58,853 nucleotides of DNA. It comes from Candidatus Magasanikbacteria bacterium CG_4_10_14_0_2_um_filter_33_14 (GTDB lineage Bacteria; Patescibacteriota; Patescibacteriia; Magasanikbacterales; UBA922). Both the position numbers and the translations under genes were made by a program. How positions within the stretch are numbered: the first letter of the stretch is position 1; each line of letters begins with the position of its first letter. Below are positions 3 through 36,072 of the stretch, piece after piece. The stretch is taken from assembly GCA_002793035.1 (NCBI GenBank), contig PFPL01000033.1:1-58853 (forward strand), in the 5' to 3' direction. The notes under the pieces are model-generated. The model did not search any database. It saw only the letters and a program-made list of their open reading frames with translations, and was not told the origin of the DNA.

Positions 3-365
3 AAATCTCTTGTAGAGATGGTAGAAAAAATGTCTGTATTAGATCTTGCTGAACTTGTAAAAGTTCTTGAAGAAAAATTCGGCGTTAGTGCTGCTGCACC
101 AGCTATGATGATGGCTGCTCCTGGAGCTGCTGCTGGTGAAGCTGTTGCTGAAAAAGATGAGTTCACTGTTGAACTTACAGCTGCAGGTGACAGTAAAATC
201 AATGTTATCAAAGCTGTAAAAGCTGCTACAGGTCTTGGTCTAGCTGATGCTAAAGCATTGGTAGACGGAGCTCCAAAAGCTATCAAAGAAAACGTAAAGA
301 AAGCTGAAGCTGAAGAATTGAAGAAACAATTGGAAGAAGCTGGTGCTACAGTTACTTTGAAATAA
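3..365 (+). CDS. rplL: 50S ribosomal protein L7/L12 (5'-partial; true start probably left of the window)
   Basis: [24 protein letters not shown], an Ala/Pro hinge and C-terminal [55 protein letters not shown] are unmistakably L7/L12. The frame stays open back to nt 3 (KSLVE before the ATG at 18) and the usual first ~8-10 residues are missing. Confidence 0.93.
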
Positions 366-15863: not shown

Positions 15864-17240
15864 ATGAAATCACTCGAATCAGTAGTCAATTTTGCTAAGC
15901 AAAAAGGTTTTATTTTTCAATCATCAGAAGTCTATGATGGACTTGCTGCTGTCTATGATTTTGGTCCTTTGGGAATTTTGCTAAAAAATAATTTGCAAGA
16001 ATTGTGGTGGAAGGAAATGGTCCAAAGACACAATAATATTTATGGACTTGATGCTGCCATCCTCATGCATCCTCGCGTTTGGGAAGCTAGTGGACATGTG
16101 GCTAGTTTTTCTGATCCACTTGTAGATTGTAAAGAATGTAAGATGCGTCACCGTGCTGATCACTTACTTGAGACTGTCGGAGTAGAAGCTGATGATAAAA
16201 TGGGAATAGAAGTATTAAATAAACTTTTGCAAGAAAATAATGTTGTTTGTCCAAATTGTAAAGGTGAACTCACACCTGCTCGTGATTTCAATCTGATGCT
16301 TGAAACTCAGCTAAGTAAGACTGATGACAGTAGTAAAGTTTATCTTCGTCCAGAAACAGCTCAAGGTATTTATGTCAATTTCAAAAATGTTCAGACTGCT
16401 ACTCGCGCCAAGATTCCTTTTGGTATTGCTCAAGTTGGTAAAGCTTTTCGCAATGAAATCACAACCAAACAATTTATCTTCCGTACCAAAGAATTTTCAC
16501 AAATGGAAATGCAATATTTTGTAAAGCCTGAAACAGCTGAAAAATTGTATGAAGATTGGAAAAGTTCTCGTTTGGCTTGGTGGGAATCTCTAGGATTGAA
16601 AGCTGAAAATCTTCGCTATCACGAACATGAAAAATTGGCTCACTACGCCAAAGCTGCTTATGATGTCGAATACAATTTCCCTTGGGGTTGGAAAGAAATA
16701 GAAGGTCTTCATAACCGTGGAGATTTTGATCTTACTCAACATGAAAAATTTAGTGGCAAAAATTTGAAATATCGTGATCCAGAAACAAATGAAGAATATG
16801 TGCCATATATTATTGAAGCTTCATCAGGACTCGACAGAAATGTCTTCACTCTTCTTGTAGACGCCTATGAAGAGCTAGATGCTAGAAGTGGGGAAGAAGA
16901 TGCTAAACATGAAAAAGAAGTGGTATTGCGTATTCACAAGAGTTTGGCGCCTATCAAGATGGCAATACTGCCACTCTCAAAGAAAGAACCTTTGCAAAAT
17001 ATTTGTAATGAAATCCAAAATACGTTATCCAAAACTTATATGACTCAGTATGATGAGACAGGAAGTATTGGTAAACGTTATAGAAGACAAGACGAAATTG
17101 GTACTCCTTATTGTATTACAGTTGATTTTGATTCACTAGAAGATAAGAAAGTGACTGTACGTGATAGAGATACGATGGAACAGGAGAGAATTGGTATTGA
17201 TGATTTAGAGAAATATTTTGTTGAAAAATTTGTAGTATGA
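15864..17240 (+). CDS. glyQS: glycine--tRNA ligase (class II, alpha2 GlyQS type)
   Basis: FIFQSSEVYDGLAAVYDFGPLG, WEASGHVASFSDPLVDCKECKMRHRAD, YLRPETAQGIYVNFKNV, GIAQVGKAFRNEIT, FRTKEFSQMEMQYF, IEASSGLDRN and the anticodon-binding C-terminus GKRYRRQDEIGTPYCITVD. Confidence 0.96.
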   Translation: MKSLESVVNFAKQKGFIFQSSEVYDGLAAVYDFGPLGILLKNNLQELWWKEMVQRHNNIYGLDAAILMHPRVWEASGHVASFSDPLVDCKECKMRHRADHLLETVGVEADDKMGIEVLNKLLQENNVVCPNCKGELTPARDFNLMLETQLSKTDDSSKVYLRPETAQGIYVNFKNVQTATRAKIPFGIAQVGKAFRNEITTKQFIFRTKEFSQMEMQYFVKPETAEKLYEDWKSSRLAWWESLGLKAENLRYHEHEKLAHYAKAAYDVEYNFPWGWKEIEGLHNRGDFDLTQHEKFSGKNLKYRDPETNEEYVPYIIEASSGLDRNVFTLLVDAYEELDARSGEEDAKHEKEVVLRIHKSLAPIKMAILPLSKKEPLQNICNEIQNTLSKTYMTQYDETGSIGKRYRRQDEIGTPYCITVDFDSLEDKKVTVRDRDTMEQERIGIDDLEKYFVEKFVV

Positions 17241-17482
17241 AATTCTTTTATACATATGTATTAAAGAGTGAAAAAGATGGTAATTTGTATATTGGTTATA
17301 CAAAAAATTTGAAGAATAGATTTGAAGAACATAATAGTGGTTTGGTAAAATCTACAAAGGACAGAAGACCTATGGATCTTGTTTACTATGAAGCTTGCTT
17401 AAATGAAAAAGATGCGATAGCACGTGAAAAGCAATTAAAAACAGGATTTGGTAGAGCTTATCTAAAGAGAAGATTGAGTTAA
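17237..17482 (+). CDS. small GIY-YIG nuclease family protein (YhbQ/UPF0213-like), copy 1
   Basis: FYTYVLKSEKDGNLYIGYTKNLKNRFEEHNSG...AREKQLK has the GIY-(10)-YIG, R and E motifs. Its ATG overlaps the glyQS stop (ATGA at 17237-40). Confidence 0.88.
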   Translation: MKFFYTYVLKSEKDGNLYIGYTKNLKNRFEEHNSGLVKSTKDRRPMDLVYYEACLNEKDAIAREKQLKTGFGRAYLKRRLS

Positions 17483-17552
17483 TAGAGATACTATGCCCGC
17501 CTGCATCGCTATGCTCAAGCATTGCGGGCAGGGAACAAGAAAGAATCTCTAT
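17482..17552 (+). other. GC-rich nested hairpin element downstream of GIY-YIG copy 1
   Basis: Outer stem ATAGAGAT (17482-89) / ATCTCTAT (17545-52). Inner 7-bp stem TGCCCGC (17494-500) / GCGGGCA (17524-30) with a GCAT/ATGC mini-hairpin in the loop. Confidence 0.5.
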
Positions 17553-17601
17553 CGAGAATCTAGAACAATATTTTTCTAGTAAATTTTAATAATTTATTCT
17601 T

Positions 17602-23010: not shown

Positions 23011-23117
23011 ATCCCCCTCCTAATAGGAGGGGCTAGGGGAGGTCTTTAGCAAGATAAAACGTCTTGTTCAAAGATGGACCCTTTCTAACCTGTTTGCCGA
23101 CAGGTAGGCTCCCCCTA
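23011..23117 (+). other. GC-rich multi-hairpin intergenic element
   Basis: 7-bp hairpin CCCCTCC/GGAGGGG (23014-32). Then TAGGGGAG (23034-41) pairs with CTCCCC(C)TA (23109-17), enclosing CAAGA/TCTTG and CCTGT/ACAGG hairpins. Confidence 0.45.
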
Positions 23118-24874: not shown

Positions 24875-24958
24875 GCAATCTTTCCCGACTTGGTCGGGAG
24901 GTAAGCAATTATATGCCATCTTTCCCGATTTAATCGGGAGGTGGAGCAATTATTATAT
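24875..24958 (+). repeat. two tandem ~40-44-nt units: tRNA-Thr acceptor 5' strand copy plus TCCCGA-N-TCGGGA hairpin
   Basis: Unit 1 is GCAATCT+TTCCCGACTTGGTCGGGAGGTAAGCAATTAT. Unit 2 is GCCATCT+TTCCCGATTTAATCGGGAGGTGGAGCAATTATTAT. ATATGCCATCT occurs at 24911-21 and again at 24955-65, where the real tRNA begins. Confidence 0.85.
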
Positions 24959-30865: not shown

Positions 30866-31927
30866 ATGAAAATTATAAATATATTGAAAGACTACTATTT
30901 TTTTGGGAATAGTTTATTAGATTATGCCATTTTTATTTTAGTATTTCTAGCTTCTTTTTTTATACTAAAATTTATCAAAGTCTATATCATCGCAAAGCTC
31001 ACAAAATTGGCCAAGAAAACAACAAATGATTTTGATGATGTGATTATTATTTCTATAGCTAATATAAAATCTAGTTTTTATTTAGTCGTATCTTTGTACA
31101 TTGCTTTTAGCTATATAAATTTGTTAGATTTTTTGCAAAAAATAGTTTACTTACTATTTGTATTGGTGTTAGTTTTCGAGGTTGTAAGATTTTTGGAAGG
31201 GATTATCAATTATTTTGTCAAAAAGAAAATGAAGTCTATTGATGGCGAGCAAGACAGAGAGACTCGTTCTGTCATGAAGATAATTACTTTGTTTTTGCGT
31301 ATTACTATTTGGTCTTTGGCTTTGCTCATGGTATTGTCCAATTTGGGTATAAATATTACCTCACTTATTGCTAGTTTGGGTATTGGTGGCATTGCCGTAG
31401 CTCTTGCTCTACAAAATATTTTGTCTGATCTTTTTTCATCATTTTCTATTCTTGTGGATAAACCATTTATGGTAGGGGATTATGTACAGGTGGGAAATGA
31501 CGATGGTATCGTTCAAAAGATTGGTCTGAAGACGACTAGAATCAAGACTTTGTTGGGTGAAGAACTTGTTATTTCCAACAAAGAGCTTACTACTTCTAGG
31601 ATCCAAAATTTCAAAAAACTTCAGAGAAGAAGAGTCGTGAATACTTGGGGGGTGACTTATGACACAGCCAAAGAAAAAATGGAAAAGATTACAGATATTG
31701 CCAAAAAGATAATTAGTTCTGTGGATGCCGTCACTTTTGAAAGATGTCACTTTTCTGCTTTTTCAGGTTCTAGTCTTGATTTCGAAGTAGTCTATTATGT
31801 AGAGAGTTCAGAATATGGTGCTTATATGGACGCCAAGCATGAAATAAATATGCAAGTCTTGGAAGCATTTAGAAAGGAAAAAATTGAATTTGCATTTCCT
31901 TCACAGACTGTATATTTGCAAAAATAA
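30866..31927 (+). CDS. mechanosensitive ion channel (MscS family)
   Basis: N-terminal TM helices, then LIASLGIGGIAVALALQNILSDLFSSFSILVDKPFMVGDYVQVGNDDGIVQKIGLKTTRIKT (MscS pore helix and beta domain). Confidence 0.9.
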   Translation: MKIINILKDYYFFGNSLLDYAIFILVFLASFFILKFIKVYIIAKLTKLAKKTTNDFDDVIIISIANIKSSFYLVVSLYIAFSYINLLDFLQKIVYLLFVLVLVFEVVRFLEGIINYFVKKKMKSIDGEQDRETRSVMKIITLFLRITIWSLALLMVLSNLGINITSLIASLGIGGIAVALALQNILSDLFSSFSILVDKPFMVGDYVQVGNDDGIVQKIGLKTTRIKTLLGEELVISNKELTTSRIQNFKKLQRRRVVNTWGVTYDTAKEKMEKITDIAKKIISSVDAVTFERCHFSAFSGSSLDFEVVYYVESSEYGAYMDAKHEINMQVLEAFRKEKIEFAFPSQTVYLQK

Positions 31928-31954
31928 GCAAAATATATAATGTTGATAATATTG

Positions 31955-31983
31955 TTGACATAAAGACGTATTTGTACTATAAT
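31955..31983 (+). promoter_or_regulatory. consensus sigma70 promoter for the tRNA-Val / GIY-YIG / tRNA-Thr cluster
   Basis: TTGACA (31955-60), 17-nt spacer, TATAAT (31978-83). An 8-bp inverted repeat AAAGACGT (31962-69) / ACGTCTTT (31988-95) brackets the -10. Confidence 0.75.
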
Positions 31984-31999
31984 TCTCACGTCTTTTACA

Positions 32000-32104
32000 A
32001 TGCGCGCCTTCCCGATGAATCGGGACTGCGCTGCGCTTGAGCTCATATTATGCGCGCCTAGCTCAGTTGGTTAGAGTCCCGACTCGTCGGGATTTACACC
32101 GAGG
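32000..32104 (+). pseudogene. two partial tRNA-Val copies carrying TCCCGA-N4-TCGGGA hairpins
   Basis: ATGCGCGCC plus hairpin TCCCGATGAATCGGGA lies at 32000-32025. 32050-32076 is identical to 32358-32384 (ATGCGCGCCTAGCTCAGTTGGTTAGAG). Then comes hairpin TCCCGACTCGTCGGGA (32077-92), then TTTACACCGAGG (32093-104), identical to the anticodon loop and 3' stem at 32392-403. No T arm or 3' acceptor follows. Confidence 0.85.
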
Positions 32105-32109
32105 AGAAT

Positions 32110-32382
32110 ATGAATTATTATACCTATATTATTTATAATAAAAAACACGATAAATTTTATATAGGTTCTACGTATAGTTTGAAAAAGCGTATAAATGAAC
32201 ATAAAACTGGTGAAGGTAATTACACTAGTCGCTATGACGGAGAATGGACATTTGTCTATTATGAAAAGCATAATGATAGAAGTGAAGCTGTGCAACGTGA
32301 AAGGTACTTCAAGTCATTAAAAAGTAAAGTATATCTAAAAAGATATATAAAAGAAAAATGCGCGCCTAGCTCAGTTGGTTAG
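32110..32382 (+). CDS. small GIY-YIG nuclease family protein, copy 2 (3' end runs into tRNA-Val)
   Basis: YTYIIYNKKHDKFYIGSTYSLKKRINEHKTG...RERYFK. The RBS GAGGAG (32101-06) is the tail of the tRNA fragment. The last 7 codons (CAPSSVG) and the TAG stop (32380-82) lie inside the tRNA-Val acceptor/D arm. Confidence 0.85.
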   Translation: MNYYTYIIYNKKHDKFYIGSTYSLKKRINEHKTGEGNYTSRYDGEWTFVYYEKHNDRSEAVQRERYFKSLKSKVYLKRYIKEKCAPSSVG

Positions 32383-32433
32383 AGCATCTCGTTTACACCG
32401 AGGGGGTCAGGGGTTCGAATCCCTTGGCGCGTA
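32360..32433 (+). tRNA. tRNA-Val (anticodon UAC)
   Basis: Acceptor GCGCGCC/GGCGCGT (G1-U72), D arm GCTC-AGTTGGTTA-GAGC, anticodon arm TCTCG-TTTACAC-CGAGG, variable GGGTC, T arm AGGGG-TTCGAAT-CCCTT, discriminator A. Confidence 0.88.
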
Positions 32434-32526
32434 CTGGTCTCCGCCTATGGCTACGCCCAGTAAACTTTTTAAAGTTTACGAGCTGGTTAGATTGGTGGAT
32501 ATTTTTTTACAAAATAATTGGGGGGT

Positions 32527-32769
32527 ATGATTTATTTTGTCTATATTTTGAAATGTAGTGATGAAAAGTATTATACAGGCTTGACTAAAAACATAAATAA
32601 TAGGATTCATCAACATATAAACGGAGAGGTGACATCAACAAAACATAGAAGACCACTAAAGTTAATTTTTTTTAGTGCATTTCCAGATAAGTATTTAGCT
32701 GCAAGTTTTGAACAATATTTGAAAACTAATTCTGGACGAGCTTTTAGAAATAAGCATTTTATAAAGTAA
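32527..32769 (+). CDS. small GIY-YIG nuclease family protein, copy 3
   Basis: MIYFVYILKCSDEKYYTGLTKNINNRIHQHINGE...SFEQYLK. The ATG at 32527 aligns with the starts of the two paralogues; the track start is the TTG at 32518. Confidence 0.85.
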   Translation: MIYFVYILKCSDEKYYTGLTKNINNRIHQHINGEVTSTKHRRPLKLIFFSAFPDKYLAASFEQYLKTNSGRAFRNKHFIK

Positions 32770-32824
32770 ATATTCGTTTTATCTACAAAAGGTGGCTTGC
32801 CTGGCGTAGCTTTAGCGAAGTCAG

Positions 32825-32897
32825 GCCATCATAGCTCAGTTGGTAGAGCGCATCCATGGTAAGGATGAGGTCTCCAGTTCAATTCTGGATGATGGCT
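32825..32897 (+). tRNA. tRNA-Thr (anticodon GGU)
   Basis: Acceptor GCCATCA/TGATGGC, D arm GCTC-AGTTGGTA-GAGC, anticodon arm CATCC-ATGGTAA-GGATG, T arm TCCAG-TTCAATT-CTGGA, discriminator T. Confidence 0.9.
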
Positions 32898-32944
32898 CAC
32901 AGTTATAAATAAATTTTAACTAAAAAAATAGTTGATTCAAATAT

Positions 32945-33008
32945 TCTCCAGTTCTCCCCCGACTAAGTCGGGGGATCCGCCTTGGGCGGAAATTCTGGAT
33001 GATGGCTC
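32945..33008 (+). pseudogene. duplicate of the last 28 nt of tRNA-Thr(GGU) split by a 36-nt double hairpin
   Basis: 32945-54 equals 32871-80 (TCTCCAGTTC) and 32991-33008 equals 32881-98 (AATTCTGGATGATGGCTC). Between them lie TCCCCCGACTAAGTCGGGGGA and TCCGCCTTGGGCGGA, inserted exactly within the T-loop. Confidence 0.9.
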
Positions 33009-33101
33009 TATATAGGTCTATTTTGACCTGAGAATAAGTAGTATTGACAAAAAATACAATATAATGTATTATATAGCAGTCTTAAACATTAGATTAAATA
33101 T

Positions 33102-33272
33102 ATGGCCTCAAAGTCAAAAGAAAGAAAAAATCGTAAGAAACTAAAATGTTCTGAATGCGGAACTGTGAATTATTTTGTAAAGAAAAATCACGTACTTCAA
33201 AACAGATTAGAACTGAAAAAATTGTGTAAAACTTGTGATAGTAAACACACATTGCACAAAGAGACAAAATAA
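33102..33272 (+). CDS. rpmG: 50S ribosomal protein L33 (56 aa; below the ORF-track length cut-off)
   Basis: My translation is MASKSKERKNRKKLKCSECGTVNYFVKKNHVLQNRLELKKLCKTCDSKHTLHKETK. It has the CxxC...CxxC zinc ribbon and the L33 C-terminus RLELKK.C..C..HTLHKE.K. A TTGACA-N17-TATTAT promoter lies at 33044-72. Confidence 0.93.
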   Translation: MASKSKERKNRKKLKCSECGTVNYFVKKNHVLQNRLELKKLCKTCDSKHTLHKETK

Positions 33273-33282
33273 GCTAAAATAA

Positions 33283-33307
33283 AACAGTCTAATCTAGACT
33301 GTTTTTT
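33283..33307 (+). terminator. intrinsic terminator after rpmG
   Basis: Stem AACAGTCTA / TAGACTGTT with loop ATC, followed by a T-run. Confidence 0.85.
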
Positions 33308-33326
33308 GTTATCTAAAATATTTATT

Positions 33327-34151
33327 ATGTATTATCTCAAAGCTTTTTTAAATAGTTTTTACAAATTTGACTGGTTGCATGCTCAAGCTGACAATAGCAA
33401 AAAAGCTGCCAATTATGTTATCTTACTTATTTTGTTATTATCGTTTGTTACCTCTGTTTTTTTGAGTACTATTGTCCCAAATAAATTGAGAGATCTAAGA
33501 AATGAGGTACTAAGCAAAGTACCAGCCTTTGAAGCAACTTTGGTCAATGGCAGTTTGAGTGTAACCCAACTTGAACAACCTTTTTTATACGAAGATGCTG
33601 AGATGTCTTTTGGTGTGAATACCAATACTAGTACAGAGGATTTCAATTTTGATACTTTTGTGGAAGGGAAGGATAAAGATATTTTGTATTTAACCTCTAG
33701 TAATATTTATTCTTATGATAGTGTCACAAAAATAAAGAATGTTTTGGATTATGATAAAGAGATAAATAAAAGTTTTAGTAAAGAATCTTTTATAAAATTT
33801 ACAGATAATTTTTTAAACAATTATAAATTATTTTTTGCTATATTTTTGATTATTTCTTTTGTTGGTTTTTCAGTATTCAAGTTGGTTAATCTATTGTTTA
33901 TAACATTGTTGGTTTGGATAATAAATAAGAATTCTGAGACAAACAATTTCAAATTTTCACAAATTTATACTATTGGATTATTTGCTATTACAGGTCCAAG
34001 TATAATTGTAGCCTTTTTACGTATATTTAACTATAGTATACCTTTCTTATATTCAATTTTATCTATTATGATTTTGATGATAGTTACTAGTAAAAAATAT
34101 AGTAGTTTGGAATTAGAAGAAAAAAATATAGAAACAGATATTCTTAAATAA
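33327..34151 (+). CDS. DUF1189-like polytopic membrane protein
   Basis: N-terminus YLKAFLNSFYKFDWLHAQADNSKKAANYVILLILLLSFV resembles DUF1189 (YvdJ-like). Four or more TM helices. The ATG at 33327 is preferred to the TTG at 33306, which lies in the terminator. Confidence 0.6.
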   Translation: MYYLKAFLNSFYKFDWLHAQADNSKKAANYVILLILLLSFVTSVFLSTIVPNKLRDLRNEVLSKVPAFEATLVNGSLSVTQLEQPFLYEDAEMSFGVNTNTSTEDFNFDTFVEGKDKDILYLTSSNIYSYDSVTKIKNVLDYDKEINKSFSKESFIKFTDNFLNNYKLFFAIFLIISFVGFSVFKLVNLLFITLLVWIINKNSETNNFKFSQIYTIGLFAITGPSIIVAFLRIFNYSIPFLYSILSIMILMIVTSKKYSSLELEEKNIETDILK

Positions 34152-34159
34152 TTTATTAT

Positions 34160-34339
34160 ATGAGTATAGAAAATCATAACCATAGTATTGGAAATTCACA
34201 CAAAGCTAAAGAAGATTTTGCAAATAATACGGATATTGTCAATATTGATAGATTATTGGGTGGTGATGACTTGTTTGGTGAATGTGAACATGGAGAGTTA
34301 TTTGGGACTTGTGATTTGTGTGCAGAAAAGAATGCTTAG
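34160..34339 (+). CDS. hypothetical 59-aa Cys-containing peptide
   Basis: My translation is MSIENHNHSIGNSHKAKEDFANNTDIVNIDRLLGGDDLFGECEHGELFGTCDLCAEKNA. The ATG lies 8 nt after the upstream stop. There is no supporting homology. Confidence 0.35.
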   Translation: MSIENHNHSIGNSHKAKEDFANNTDIVNIDRLLGGDDLFGECEHGELFGTCDLCAEKNA

Positions 34340-34436
34340 AAAAATGGCTAAAAGTAAATAAATAACAGTTTTTACACTTGATTTTTATTTCATTTTAGTG
34401 TATATTATTTGGGCAGTAAAAAGTTTGCTGTCTTAT

Positions 34437-34507
34437 GGGCGCGTCGTATAATGGTAGTACAGGGGTCTCCAAAACCTCTTGCGTGAGTTCGATTCTTACC
34501 GCGCCTG
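34437..34507 (+). tRNA. tRNA-Trp (anticodon CCA)
   Basis: Acceptor GGGCGCG/CGCGCCT (G1-U72), D arm GTAT-AATGGTA-GTAC, anticodon arm GGGGT-CTCCAAA-ACCTC, T arm GTGAG-TTCGATT-CTTAC, discriminator G. Confidence 0.85.
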
Positions 34508-34517
34508 CTCAGAAATT

Positions 34518-34543
34518 CGTGGCTAATTATAGCCACGTTTTTT
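34518..34543 (+). terminator. intrinsic terminator after tRNA-Trp
   Basis: Stem CGTGGCT / AGCCACG with loop AATTAT, then TTTTTT. Confidence 0.85.
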
Positions 34544-34632
34544 GTTGGAGGATAATAATAAAATTTTCTTGTACTTTATTATTATTTTTTGTTATACTAT
34601 CAATAATAAAAAGTGAATAATTATATGCCCAT

Positions 34633-36072
34633 ATGATAAAAAACGGTGGTGAAACTTTCTCTGTAAATTCATTTGAAAAAGAGGTATTACCAAAAAGACA
34701 AGATCCGGAAACTGATAAAGAAACATGGAATAAAAATTTATCTCCAACAAATTTGGTGGCGATTCATATTACTAATACATTCCCAACTGATGGAGTGGTA
34801 AGAAGTCATGTTGGTTGGACAGAGCATGATGGAAGACGACTTAAAGGTGTTAGAGATACTATTCATTTTACTCTCAATCATGTGGTTGTAGAAGAACATA
34901 ATGGAATTGACTCAAAAATGAGAGGTTCTTGGCATACCAGAAATTTTGTCGTACTTGCTCCTTTTGACAAATTCAAAAAGGAACAGATAAAAAATTTAAT
35001 ACGTCAGGATACTTTTACTCTTGGTGATTTTGAAATTCCACAAGGTTCGAGAGTTTTAATTGATTGGAAAGAACTTTCTTTATTGCGTGATTCTCATGTC
35101 ATCGATAATGATCAAATGCAAAGTATTATTGATCAGCTTGGAGTAAGTGATAATTATATTTCAACAGAAACAAATCCAGAAAAAGAGATAATAGTTGAAT
35201 CAAATGGTATTGAATATGTAATAGCAAATGTCTCTGATGGTGAATTTCGTCCATATATTGAAAAACAAATAAAAGATATGGGGTATAAGTTTGCTTATCC
35301 TAATTTTAATGAATCATTTTTTGAAAAATACGGATTTCAGCCTGGTCGATTGCACGAAGGGCATCCAGATGGAAAGCCAGAAAATTTGGGAGTGGTTATG
35401 GATAATTTGGTGCCTCTTGTTTTTTTAGACTGGTTTCTTTTAATGGGTACTACAGAATATATAGATAGGTTTGGTAATATTTCAGAAGGATATAAATATG
35501 AAGACAGGTTTTTTACTGCCAAAGAGAGTTTGCAAGAGGGCCTTAAGAAGGATTATAATTTTTTGCAAAATATTTCAGAAGATTTACGAGCAAAAAAATA
35601 TCTTAAGGATCGTTTTTTTCAATATTTATTTATAATAAGAGAAATTACAGAAGTTCACTTGGGAAAAATGGGGGATGGAAAATTCAAAGATATTTTTGGT
35701 GAATTTAAAGTATGGTTAGAAGATTTCATAAAAAAAAATTCTATAGAGATAGAGCTTGACGCAGAGTATTGTGTAGATTATCTAAAAAGTATTTGTAATG
35801 GGTATTTAAAAAAAATTATAGAGTTTGAACAACCAAAATCAGAGGATAGTATTTTTCACAGTCCTGCATCAGTTTTATTACGTTATGTACAGCAATTTAC
35901 AAAATTATTAAAGTCAACACATATATCTGAAAGTGATAGACAGGTTTTCTATAATTTTTTTGTTCAATTAAAAGATGATTTAGAAAGTAATATGCAAGTA
36001 GGTAGGATTCCCGATTGGCATTTAAGTACAATCCATAAAGTTATGGATACTATTGATTTAGTTTGTGAATAA
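34633..36072 (+). CDS. hypothetical protein (479 aa, no recognisable domain)
   Basis: Long clean ORF with protein-like composition and no motif I can name. Confidence 0.7.
   Translation: MIKNGGETFSVNSFEKEVLPKRQDPETDKETWNKNLSPTNLVAIHITNTFPTDGVVRSHVGWTEHDGRRLKGVRDTIHFTLNHVVVEEHNGIDSKMRGSWHTRNFVVLAPFDKFKKEQIKNLIRQDTFTLGDFEIPQGSRVLIDWKELSLLRDSHVIDNDQMQSIIDQLGVSDNYISTETNPEKEIIVESNGIEYVIANVSDGEFRPYIEKQIKDMGYKFAYPNFNESFFEKYGFQPGRLHEGHPDGKPENLGVVMDNLVPLVFLDWFLLMGTTEYIDRFGNISEGYKYEDRFFTAKESLQEGLKKDYNFLQNISEDLRAKKYLKDRFFQYLFIIREITEVHLGKMGDGKFKDIFGEFKVWLEDFIKKNSIEIELDAEYCVDYLKSICNGYLKKIIEFEQPKSEDSIFHSPASVLLRYVQQFTKLLKSTHISESDRQVFYNFFVQLKDDLESNMQVGRIPDWHLSTIHKVMDTIDLVCE

Follow-up and report, generated by a model that had tools for sequence, protein, structure and literature searches.

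A tRNA-Val(UAC) locus of a Magasanikbacteria genome as the probable seat of a selfish cassette of minimal GIY-YIG nuclease gene, GC-rich hairpin and tRNA pieces

In a stretch of 58,853 nucleotides (nt) from Candidatus Magasanikbacteria bacterium CG_4_10_14_0_2_um_filter_33_14 (contig PFPL01000033.1, assembly GCA_002793035.1), referred to below as the window, an open reading frame (ORF) for a small GIY-YIG nuclease is found between a tRNA-Val(UAC) gene and partial copies of the same gene that are associated with GC-rich palindromes. We consider it probable that this locus is a selfish nuclease-plus-hairpin cassette which is specialised on the tRNA-Val(UAC) gene and which would consist of a minimal single-domain GIY-YIG gene, the palindrome TCCCGA-loop-TCGGGA and pieces of tRNA-Val. 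Over unrelated genomic contexts this nuclease lineage remains associated with one palindrome and one tRNA species, and empty sites are found within the same genus. Cleavage by the nuclease, the role of the hairpin and the route of recombination are what we infer from these arrangements.

The source genome, that of an ultra-small bacterium from groundwater (1.10 Mb, 33% GC, 71 contigs, 40 tRNA genes), has Val-GAC and Val-TAC as its only valine tRNAs. At 31955–32434 the parts of the locus follow each other in the order promoter, leader, 8-nt piece, hairpin 1, decayed stretch, 27-nt copy, hairpin 2, 12-nt copy and ORF/tRNA (Table 1). Everything at 32010–32359 is inserted sequence, which was built up in layers by no fewer than two or three events. 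The left copy of an 11-nt direct repeat is formed by AATGCGCGCCT at 31999–32009, corresponding to tRNA nt -3 to 8. The calculated DNA folds amount to -7.4 kcal/mol (z -4.3) for hairpin 1 and -5.5 kcal/mol for hairpin 2. The decayed stretch probably derives from an earlier partial duplication of the tRNA 5' end (about nt -1 to 14), its likeness to TGCGCGCCTAGCTCA being weak and judged by eye alone, and the 27-nt copy is not called a tRNA by ARAGORN or Rfam. The Shine-Dalgarno sequence GAGGAG (32101–32106, in GAGGAG-N3-ATG) begins within the copied anticodon-stem strand, and at its other end the ORF shares 23 nt with the 5' end of the intact tRNA. All the sequence statements of a preliminary description of the locus, namely the promoter, both hairpins, the 27-nt and 12-nt copies, the ribosome-binding site, the ORF and its run of 23 nt into the tRNA up to the TAG of the D loop, hold on re-examination.

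Table 1. Features of the tRNA-Val(UAC) locus and of the elements next to it (positions in the window)
Feature	Position	Strand	Evidence or remark
Native sigma-70-type promoter of the tRNA-Val/tRNA-Thr operon	31955–31983	+	TTGACA-N17-TATAAT, 12/12 consensus
Native leader TCTCACGTCTTTTACAAT (18 nt) and original tRNA-Val nt 1–8	31984–32009	+	collinear with the empty sites of G001 and G003
Displaced ancestral tRNA 5' end GCGCGCCT	32002–32009	+	still joined to native promoter and leader
Hairpin 1, TCCCGA-TGAA-TCGGGA (TCCCGATGAATCGGGA)	32010–32025	.	placed after tRNA nt 8
Decayed fragment CTGCGCTGCGCTTGAGCTCATATT (24 nt)	32026–32049	+	common to G005
Exact copy of AT and tRNA-Val nt 1–24 (acceptor 5' strand, D arm to GAG)	32050–32076	+	27/27 identical to 32358–32384
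Hairpin 2, TCCCGA(C)-TC(G)-(G)TCGGGA (TCCCGACTCGTCGGGA)	32077–32092	.	replaces tRNA nt 25–31 (CATCTCG)
Copy of anticodon loop and 3' anticodon-stem strand (nt 32–43), TTTACACCGAGG	32093–32104	+	12/12 identical to 32392–32403
Single-domain GIY-YIG nuclease gene (90 amino acids)	32110–32382	+	Pfam E 2.3e-16
Intact tRNA-Val(UAC), the only one in the genome	32360–32434	+	ARAGORN and Rfam, 64.6 bits; ends called at 32433/34
Second, different GIY-YIG element, filling the Val-Thr spacer	32436–32823	+	ORF 32527–32769, Pfam E 7e-17
Displaced original 3' end of tRNA-Thr(GGU), nt 47–76	32945–33008	+	repeat families; DNA fold -16.9 kcal/mol

The tRNA-Val(UAC) gene was located in 40 relatives, the same-genus loci were then read and a five-way alignment was made, for which the tRNA itself was used as anchor because the MscS gene upstream is absent from all six same-genus genomes. 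Two of these genomes, G001 and G003, have an empty site, in which TypA is followed by the same promoter, the leader TCTCACGTCTTTTGCAAT (ACAAT in G003) and the intact tRNA, with tRNA-Thr(GGU) about 46 nt past tRNA-Val and then the rpmG promoter. The tRNA is also uninterrupted in G004, where the leader is different. In G005, where the ORF is absent, GCGCGCCT is followed by hairpin 1, identical to that of the window and at the same place, then by the decayed stretch, some 20 A-rich nt and the intact tRNA; the insert of this genome measures 71 nt and lies between 9-nt repeats. Relative to the empty sites, the window allele has 358 extra nt between the two copies of the 11-nt repeat. No ortholog of the ORF is found at the locus in any of the six genomes, and the window tRNA is 99–100% identical to that of G001, G003, G004 and G005.

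The alignment of orthologous loci, which the preliminary description had proposed as a check, thus set empty sites (G001, G003) against the occupied window. Since three states (empty, 71-nt insert, fully occupied) are cleanly separated in it, the native tRNA 5' end is the 8-nt piece and not, as had been thought, the 27-nt copy. That an ORF plus a duplicated 5' half was inserted after the anticodon stem is still acceptable as a formal description, but not as the likely history, because in the usual layout of the relatives two tRNA copies, one of them disrupted, flank the ORF. The core of the earlier proposal, an invasion associated with the GIY-YIG gene or a selfish cassette relying on tRNA promoter and processing, survives: it agrees with the empty sites, with the relatives at tRNA-Val(UAC) genes elsewhere and with the native promoter as the sole strong one; three of its points had to be corrected. 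TTGACA and TATAAT are invariant across G001, G003, G004 and G005, and weaker promoter-like matches inside the insert reach 10/12, the only 12/12 match being the tRNA's own promoter, which presumably now also drives both GIY-YIG ORFs.

The arrangement is not an assembly artefact, because contigs from four independent aquifer/groundwater runs (Logan) reproduce all junctions with zero mismatches and at a depth over the insert (about 7–9) that is equal to that of the flanks. A single contig, 32053–32387, covers the pseudo-copy, hairpin 2, the ORF and the real tRNA, and another, 31980–32076, extends from hairpin 1 to the pseudo-copy. A sequence or assembly error behind the duplication, which would have overturned the preliminary description, is contradicted by these contigs. 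That the locus is some other ordinary product, such as an integrase island with duplication of its tRNA attachment site or a group I intron with a homing endonuclease, is hardly credible either. Although tRNA genes are classic integration sites and GIY-YIG genes do occur in group I introns, there is no integrase in or beside the 358-nt insert with its one 90-residue ORF, and it is the 5' end and not the 3' end of the tRNA that is duplicated. Moreover, no intron or other RNA family of Rfam is detected in 31000–35000, even at E 1, and splicing could not restore the tRNA because seven nt (25–31) are missing from the interrupted copy. A role of the hairpins as part of a group I intron, of another RNA family or of a terminator was rejected, there being no Rfam match and, in a sequence scan, no terminator-like site ahead of 33008.

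Relatives of the nuclease were collected from a search of 5.8 billion proteins, which returned eight at 59–76% identity, and a scan of species-representative genomes with the single protein query gave five loci only, all of them distant. Among 60 relatives there is one close copy, in G028 (locus L049), a genome of another genus, with different synteny and 68% identity. Phylogenetic analysis groups eight proteins, all of which are encoded beside tRNA-Val(UAC), together with a tRNA-Asn-linked sister in a clade (support 99/98; the members listed are the window ORF, L049 (= P0005), P0002–P0004 and P0006–P0009). The loci examined were the window, G028, L083–L086, L087, L088 and L089; seven of the eight clade loci were read in sequence, and L086 was checked for the tRNA gene only. 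Four of them (L083, L084, L085, L086) share one synteny (permease ... GH42-like gene) and L087, L088 and L089 represent three further contexts, so that the clade is spread over at least five genomic contexts.

In every one of the seven loci read the adjoining tRNA-Val copy has TCCCGA-loop-TCGGGA in place of nt 25–31; in G028, L083, L084, L085, L087, L088 and L089 the seven nt replaced are the same as in the window. The arms of the palindrome are invariant, the seventh pair covaries (T:A in five loci, C:G in the other two), and all loops differ; by its sequence the palindrome looks functional. An earlier idea that the hairpin loop keeps the 5' anticodon-stem strand (CTCG in Val, CAAAG in Ile) was rejected, the loops of the seven other Val-clade copies being unrelated.

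The usual order at these loci is a disrupted copy (nt 1–24, hairpin, nt 32–45), a spacer, the intact tRNA, 4–14 nt, the ORF, a further disrupted copy (nt x–24, hairpin, nt 32–76) and a terminator, which places hairpins on either side of the intact tRNA and the ORF. Tandem arrays also exist, with two complete disrupted copies in L084 and two units of ORF plus disrupted copy in L085, and the stop codon of the ORF is the same D-loop TAG in the window, L084 and L085. The window itself is a permuted variant, consisting of a truncated disrupted copy, the ORF and an intact tRNA of host type. This permuted order is a recurrent one, since L081 (at tRNA-Asp) and L079 (at tRNA-Asn) have the same order.

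In G028 and L089 the two tRNA copies are of different types. GGGCAAT/ATTGCCC forms the acceptor stem of the intact tRNA beside the ORF, and the disrupted copy is of the GCACGCC or G.ACGCC type, which is the type native to the genomes of this family (93–97% identity to the window tRNA over the full length); no further full-length tRNA-Val(UAC)-like match is found in G028. In these two loci the intact tRNA looks like cargo, judging from its sequence type. The window has host-type sequence in the fragment as well as in the intact tRNA-Val.

Linkage to tRNA genes extends beyond this clade. Homolog loci abut a tRNA gene (within about 135 nt) in 15 of 29 cases in relatives, all 15 of them co-oriented and involving 13 tRNA species, and at six loci the ATG lies 3–5 nt past the tRNA 3' end. 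The source genome contains 11 small GIY-YIG ORFs, five of which abut tRNA genes (≤150 nt) as compared to a random mean of 0.2. In the tree, a clade of 13 members that are never beside a tRNA gene comprises UPF0213-like copies and copies with flanking inverted repeats of about 35 nt, and the tRNA-linked genes account for the remainder of the tree. Within a nuclease lineage the tRNA species can switch, as seen from sisters at tRNA-Asp and tRNA-Ser(GGA) and from a copy at a gene end which is sister to a tRNA-Gln copy.

Other lineages carry other hairpins. L081 (Patescibacteria, tRNA-Asp) and L082 (Planctomycetota, tRNA-Pro), which form a pair of weak support (89/0) in the tree, have in common the hairpin GTCGCC-N3-GGCGAC, which replaces the anticodon arm. 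L079 (Saccharibacteria, tRNA-Asn) has TCCGCC-AGCT-GGCGGA in the D loop, in the order promoter, fragment, ORF and tRNA as in the window. Nuclease lineage and hairpin type thus appear to go together. In L082, from a GC-rich metagenome-assembled genome of the Phycisphaeraceae, positions 1120–1430 hold an intact tRNA-Pro(GGG), 3 nt, the GIY-YIG ORF (with an apparent internal deletion) and a tRNA-Pro copy with its anticodon arm replaced by GTCGCCTGGGCGAC.

Two paralogous ORFs of a different GIY-YIG clade were noticed on contig C68 (17830–18270 and 19900–20520), between and after Fe-S cluster genes, which were read by eye and which we take to be nifS-like and nifU-like. Each lies within imperfect inverted repeats of about 35 nt that start with TCCCGA or TCCCTGA and end with TCGGGA or TCAGGGA, resembling the repeat-nuclease-repeat layout of the Ssn nucleases considered below.

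The protein encoded in the window matches the Pfam profile PF01541 at E 2.3e-16 and 60.3 bits (cut-off 22.6), its residues 2–73 covering positions 1–74 of the 78 in the profile, and across 48 homologs the catalytic residues Y6, Y17, R27, H31 and E64 show either no variation or a conservation of 90% or more. The pN/pS ratio of 0.15–0.25 (0.21 against a 76%-identical and 0.25 against a 68%-identical relative, with synonymous sites saturated) points to a working gene under purifying selection rather than debris. An AlphaFold2 model (pLDDT 88.6) agrees with the GIY-YIG fold of a three-stranded sheet with helices and has as its top folds in the PDB first UPF0213 proteins, then Slx1 and then the catalytic domain of I-TevI (Foldseek E 4.5e-5 for UPF0213, about 0.02–0.03 for Slx1), and the closest PDB sequences are likewise UPF0213 proteins (1zg2 BH0048 and 1ywl EF2693, two nuclear magnetic resonance structures; E 1e-4). 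Searches of NCBIfam and PADLOC gave sub-threshold matches only, placing the ORF in no named family and among no known defence proteins. The 17 residues after the GIY-YIG domain are encoded by leader and tRNA sequence.

A possible mode of spread of the cassette starts from the tRNA pieces that it carries, which may act as portable homology arms and allow entry into similar tRNA-Val genes by host (RecA-type) homologous recombination, either by a double crossover from taken-up linear DNA or by a single crossover of a small circle. Direct tRNA repeats together with one intact gene would be expected because either crossover route leaves them automatically. The palindrome may be the cognate recognition hairpin of the nuclease, by analogy with the Ssn nucleases, single-domain GIY-YIG enzymes which cut single-stranded DNA beside cognate hairpin repeats (NTS/SRM), the stem being read and the loop being free, and whose genes are often flanked by these repeats (Chenal et al. 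2025, PMC11893778). Cutting at or beside the palindrome would create recombinogenic ends and could lead to spread, tandem amplification and repeated invasion, as in the stacked 5' fragments seen here. The cassette would keep or bring one intact tRNA, and the ORF would be transcribed from the tRNA promoter, with its mRNA shaped by tRNA processing: cleavage by RNase P at 32360 would take off the stop codon of the ORF and may limit its expression.

One might go further and regard such cassettes as natural cleave-and-rescue elements, in which nuclease and palindrome disable the resident copy of an essential single-copy tRNA gene, the hairpin replacing a defined tRNA segment of 7–17 nt, and the cassette supplies a linked intact tRNA on which the cell becomes dependent. 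Scattered bare hairpins would then be the smallest members, mobilised in trans, and tRNA sequence, being nearly universal, would represent a ready-made homology arm for transfer between genera and even phyla; we regard this extension as doubtful.

Hairpins and tRNA part-copies are more common in this genome than the nuclease loci. Five families of GC-rich palindromes account for 45 copies, 14 of which lie within 150 nt of a tRNA gene as compared to a random mean of 0.55. Part-copies adjoin no fewer than 12 of the 40 tRNA genes; those upstream are 5' pieces and those downstream are 3' pieces, and such a hairpin interrupts almost every one. The sites within the tRNA recur: after U8 or inside the D loop as far as G18, from nt 23/25 to 31/33, and in the T loop between TTC and AAT. 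The preliminary description would have been refuted by duplications that occur regardless of a GIY-YIG gene, and this applies in part, as G005 and at least 12 other tRNA genes show hairpin-interrupted part-copies, most of them without a nuclease gene. The hairpin, rather than the ORF, is the more constant partner of the tRNA part-duplications.

Several observations weigh against a selfish cassette built around the nuclease. A nuclease gene is lacking beside most hairpin-interrupted part-copies of this genome. The palindrome type that we term hairpin A occurs in 0–29 copies per genome in 61 genomes (0–1 for a reversed-pattern control); that its copy number correlates with GIY-YIG copy number (rho 0.40, p 0.0016) speaks for the cassette, but the value is not corrected for phylogeny and there are clear exceptions. 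Among these genomes, G050 has 21 copies of hairpin A and zero GIY-YIG matches at the threshold used, and G042 and G048 have seven GIY-YIG genes and zero hairpin A. G005 may be a precursor of the occupied state or a deletion derivative of it, the latter being favoured only by about 13 A-rich nt that match the end of the ORF. The window layout, with both hairpins upstream of the ORF, requires an extra rearrangement, and the contigs show no junction indicative of excision or of a circle. The protein consists of the catalytic domain only, the C-terminal DNA-binding domain of Seg-type endonucleases being absent. Finally, the intact tRNA still has nt 25–31, so that a nuclease directed against this duplex sequence would cleave the rescue copy as well; the occupied allele keeps a tRNA identical to the empty one, which therefore argues against simple duplex targeting.

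Some of these points would follow if the GC hairpins were the real mobile agents, tiny palindromic elements that are moved by another enzyme or by replication slippage and enter loops and junctions of tRNA genes, with survivors needing a duplicated tRNA segment and with the GIY-YIG gene as an unrelated passenger that settles at tRNA genes because of their strong promoters. In agreement with this, the tRNA genes of this genome that have hairpin-bearing part-copies (no fewer than 12) outnumber the five that are linked to a nuclease gene, hairpin 1 is present in G005 although the ORF is absent, some hairpins stand alone in intergenic DNA, and G050 has its 21 copies; L083, moreover, has acquired in its T loop a second hairpin, which the syntenic L084 lacks. 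We nevertheless consider it unlikely, as each nuclease lineage keeps its own hairpin type over genomes and even phyla, a tRNA copy disrupted by a hairpin is directly joined to the ORF in all seven loci of the Val clade that were read, and hairpin and nuclease copy numbers correlate. In addition, action of the nuclease in trans is conceivable, as the genome has 11 such genes, and hairpin specificity has been proven for the related Ssn nucleases (PMC11893778).

It has also to be considered that the nuclease might be a domesticated host protein of the Ssn/UPF0213 type, serving for example the restriction of incoming single-stranded DNA or the resolution of structures at strongly transcribed tRNA operons, with the disrupted copies as signals for RNA processing or regulation and not as scars of invasion. 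Purifying selection on the ORF, its predicted co-transcription with essential tRNAs and the host-level role of Ssn in Neisseria (PMC11893778) could be read in this way, and the disrupted full-length copies in L084 and G028 retain acceptor and T arms which RNase P and RNase Z could still cut. The upstream fragment in the window, however, has no 3' half as needed for recognition by these enzymes. Presence and absence vary within one genus with precise empty sites, the same module is found in different genomic contexts, G028 has a foreign-type intact tRNA beside a disrupted copy of native type, and the stacked decayed fragments and tandem arrays resemble repeated invasion and not a fixed regulatory design. 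Domestication is for these reasons quite improbable.

Returning to the selfish cassette, one of its closest counterparts is the Ssn system, with which it shares a single-domain GIY-YIG protein of about 90–100 amino acids (90 here, about 100 in Ssn), GC-rich hairpins with conserved stem and free loop that are clustered at the gene, further copies scattered through the genome, and different hairpins for different nuclease lineages; in the usual layout of the Val clade, hairpins lie on both sides of the gene as in NTS-ssnA-NTS. The SRM consensus HGTCWY..RNCYNB itself matches this genome once, 21 kb from any GIY-YIG gene, where shuffles give 0.9, and such repeats do not flank the gene. The Ssn paper (PMC11893778) never mentions tRNA, whereas here the hairpins replace defined parts of tRNA copies and are accompanied by tRNA duplications. 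In addition, the ORF lies outside the clade of the repeat-flanked GIY-YIG genes of this genome that are not linked to tRNA.

GIY-YIG endonucleases of the Seg type offer a second comparison. SegB of phage T4 has about 220 amino acids and a DNA-binding domain. It is a free-standing homing endonuclease encoded in a tRNA cluster which recognises a conserved tRNA motif, the T-psi-C stem-loop, and spreads itself and neighbouring tRNA genes by break repair (PMC2330249). Both systems have a GIY-YIG gene among tRNA genes and related genomes without it, and the patchy distribution with precise empty sites expected of a Seg-type element is found here (G001 and G003 empty, six same-genus genomes without an ortholog). 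SegB, however, acts in phage crosses, with no hairpin or tRNA part-duplication, whereas the present gene is chromosomal, encodes 90 residues and is combined with a palindrome-disrupted tRNA copy.

The logic of displacement is known from the mORFs of fungal mitochondria, which supply a new end for the gene that they enter and leave its former end stranded (Glomus, PMC3630166). In both cases an endonuclease ORF enters an essential gene together with a copy of the displaced part, resulting in an intact hybrid gene and a stranded fragment; in the window, the displaced nt 1–8 and the second copy (nt 1–24 and 32–43) lie upstream and the intact tRNA downstream of the ORF. A further mORF example is atp6 of Allomyces. 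The mORFs differ in having mitochondrial protein genes as hosts, with the ORF often fused in frame, and neither a signature hairpin nor a tRNA target.

UPF0213 proteins and Slx1 are the closest solved structures to the ORF, UPF0213 by sequence and both by fold. For UPF0213 proteins we know of no function and no linkage to tRNA. Slx1 cuts branched and hairpin-like DNA by structure and needs Slx4 and extra domains. The UPF0213-like copies of this genome (on C41 and C9), which are presumably YhbQ-like, form a separate clade away from tRNA genes. No published description of tRNA-linked cassettes of minimal GIY-YIG gene and hairpin was found in the literature.

The surroundings of the locus have been remodelled as well. 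The Val-Thr spacer has 390 nt in the window compared to about 46 nt in G001, G003 and G005 and is filled by the second GIY-YIG element, which has imperfect inverted repeats at 32436–32462 and 32795–32823. Its sister copy (58% identity) is found on C52 (25643–25997), between tRNA-Ala and tRNA-Phe, with the same GTAAAC..GTTTAC stem upstream. The displaced 3' end of tRNA-Thr(GGU) has two hairpins in its T loop, exactly between TTC and AAT, and since the native downstream flank, as in G001 and G003, adjoins this piece and not the working tRNA-Thr, the tRNA-Thr gene was invaded from the other side, leaving its 3' piece stranded. No empty allele of the same strain could be convincingly identified in the contig search, the joints found belonging to tRNAs of other organisms.

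Upstream, a gene for an MscS-type channel (30866–31927) is located between typA and the tRNA promoter. In the six same-genus genomes typA is directly followed by the tRNA-Val promoter, and because the gene is absent there and its best homologs (43–49%) occur in other genera, it looks like a separate insertion. At 17237–17600, an ORF for an 81-residue GIY-YIG protein, 71% identical to a copy beside tRNA-Gln(CUG) in G003, overlaps the stop codon of a class II aminoacyl-tRNA synthetase gene (15864–17240); 3' of it lies a diverged duplicate of about the last 25 codons of the synthetase gene, broken by the GC hairpin CCCGCCTGC...GCGGGCAG. This is apparently the same design on a protein gene, and it follows the same logic as the mORFs.

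Further hairpin-containing tRNA structures were noticed in the course of the analysis. At 24875–24958 of the window, two tandem units precede tRNA-Thr(UGU), each composed of a leader, GCCATCTT (nt 1–8), a TCCCGA..TCGGGA hairpin replacing nt 9–17 and GGT(G/A)AGC (nt 18–25), with no GIY-YIG gene within 7 kb. On contig C30 (39900–40125), the arms TCCCGAT ... ATCGGGA interrupt an outer tRNA-Asn(GUU) and enclose, in the position of a hairpin loop, caaagc, a complete working tRNA-Asn and tttt; a further hairpin is located in the outer 5' part. Half hairpins suspected after tRNA-Thr(CGU) and tRNA-Glu(CUC) were not counted, the Thr case being more readily accounted for by 3 nt inserted into a diverged copy. 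ARAGORN calls an 85-nt tRNA-Cys(ACA) and a tRNA-Ser(ACU), with implausible anticodons, at C51 10440–10524 and C61 6367–6454, both in clusters rich in tRNA part-copies, and these calls may be interrupted or chimeric tRNA copies.

Other small elements are present too. Paired palindromes, CCCCTCCT-N3-AGGAGGGG and CTCCCCCT-N3-AGGGGGAG, about 75 nt apart and with a conserved core between them (...AAAACGTTTTA...), occur at 23014–23032 of the window and at about 12 other sites in the genome and constitute a separate family of small repeat elements. In G001 (L018, about 140–260, minus strand), a copy of the first 13 nt of tRNA-Thr(GGU) and an insert of about 95 nt with terminal inverted repeats (CACGTAAA...TTTACGT) lie in front of this tRNA; the insert is a different, ORF-free small element that also duplicates the 5' end of a tRNA.

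For annotation, our results imply that interrupted tRNA copies can be miscalled as odd tRNAs and that ORF ends can be read from tRNA sequence. If the selfish cassette proposed here is correct, it would explain the clustering of small genes annotated as GIY-YIG family protein and of odd tRNA fragments at tRNA loci, and compact hairpin-specific nucleases might become useful as tools. It would also provide a function for a large uncharacterised branch of single-domain GIY-YIG proteins and extend the pairing of nuclease and hairpin known from Ssn to a mobile, tRNA-targeted setting. The tRNA genes of ultra-small bacteria of the Candidate Phyla Radiation (CPR), and of some other bacteria, would then be hosts to selfish elements of less than 400 bp which, with no transposase or integrase, make use of a nuclease of about 90 residues, a short palindrome and borrowed tRNA sequence.

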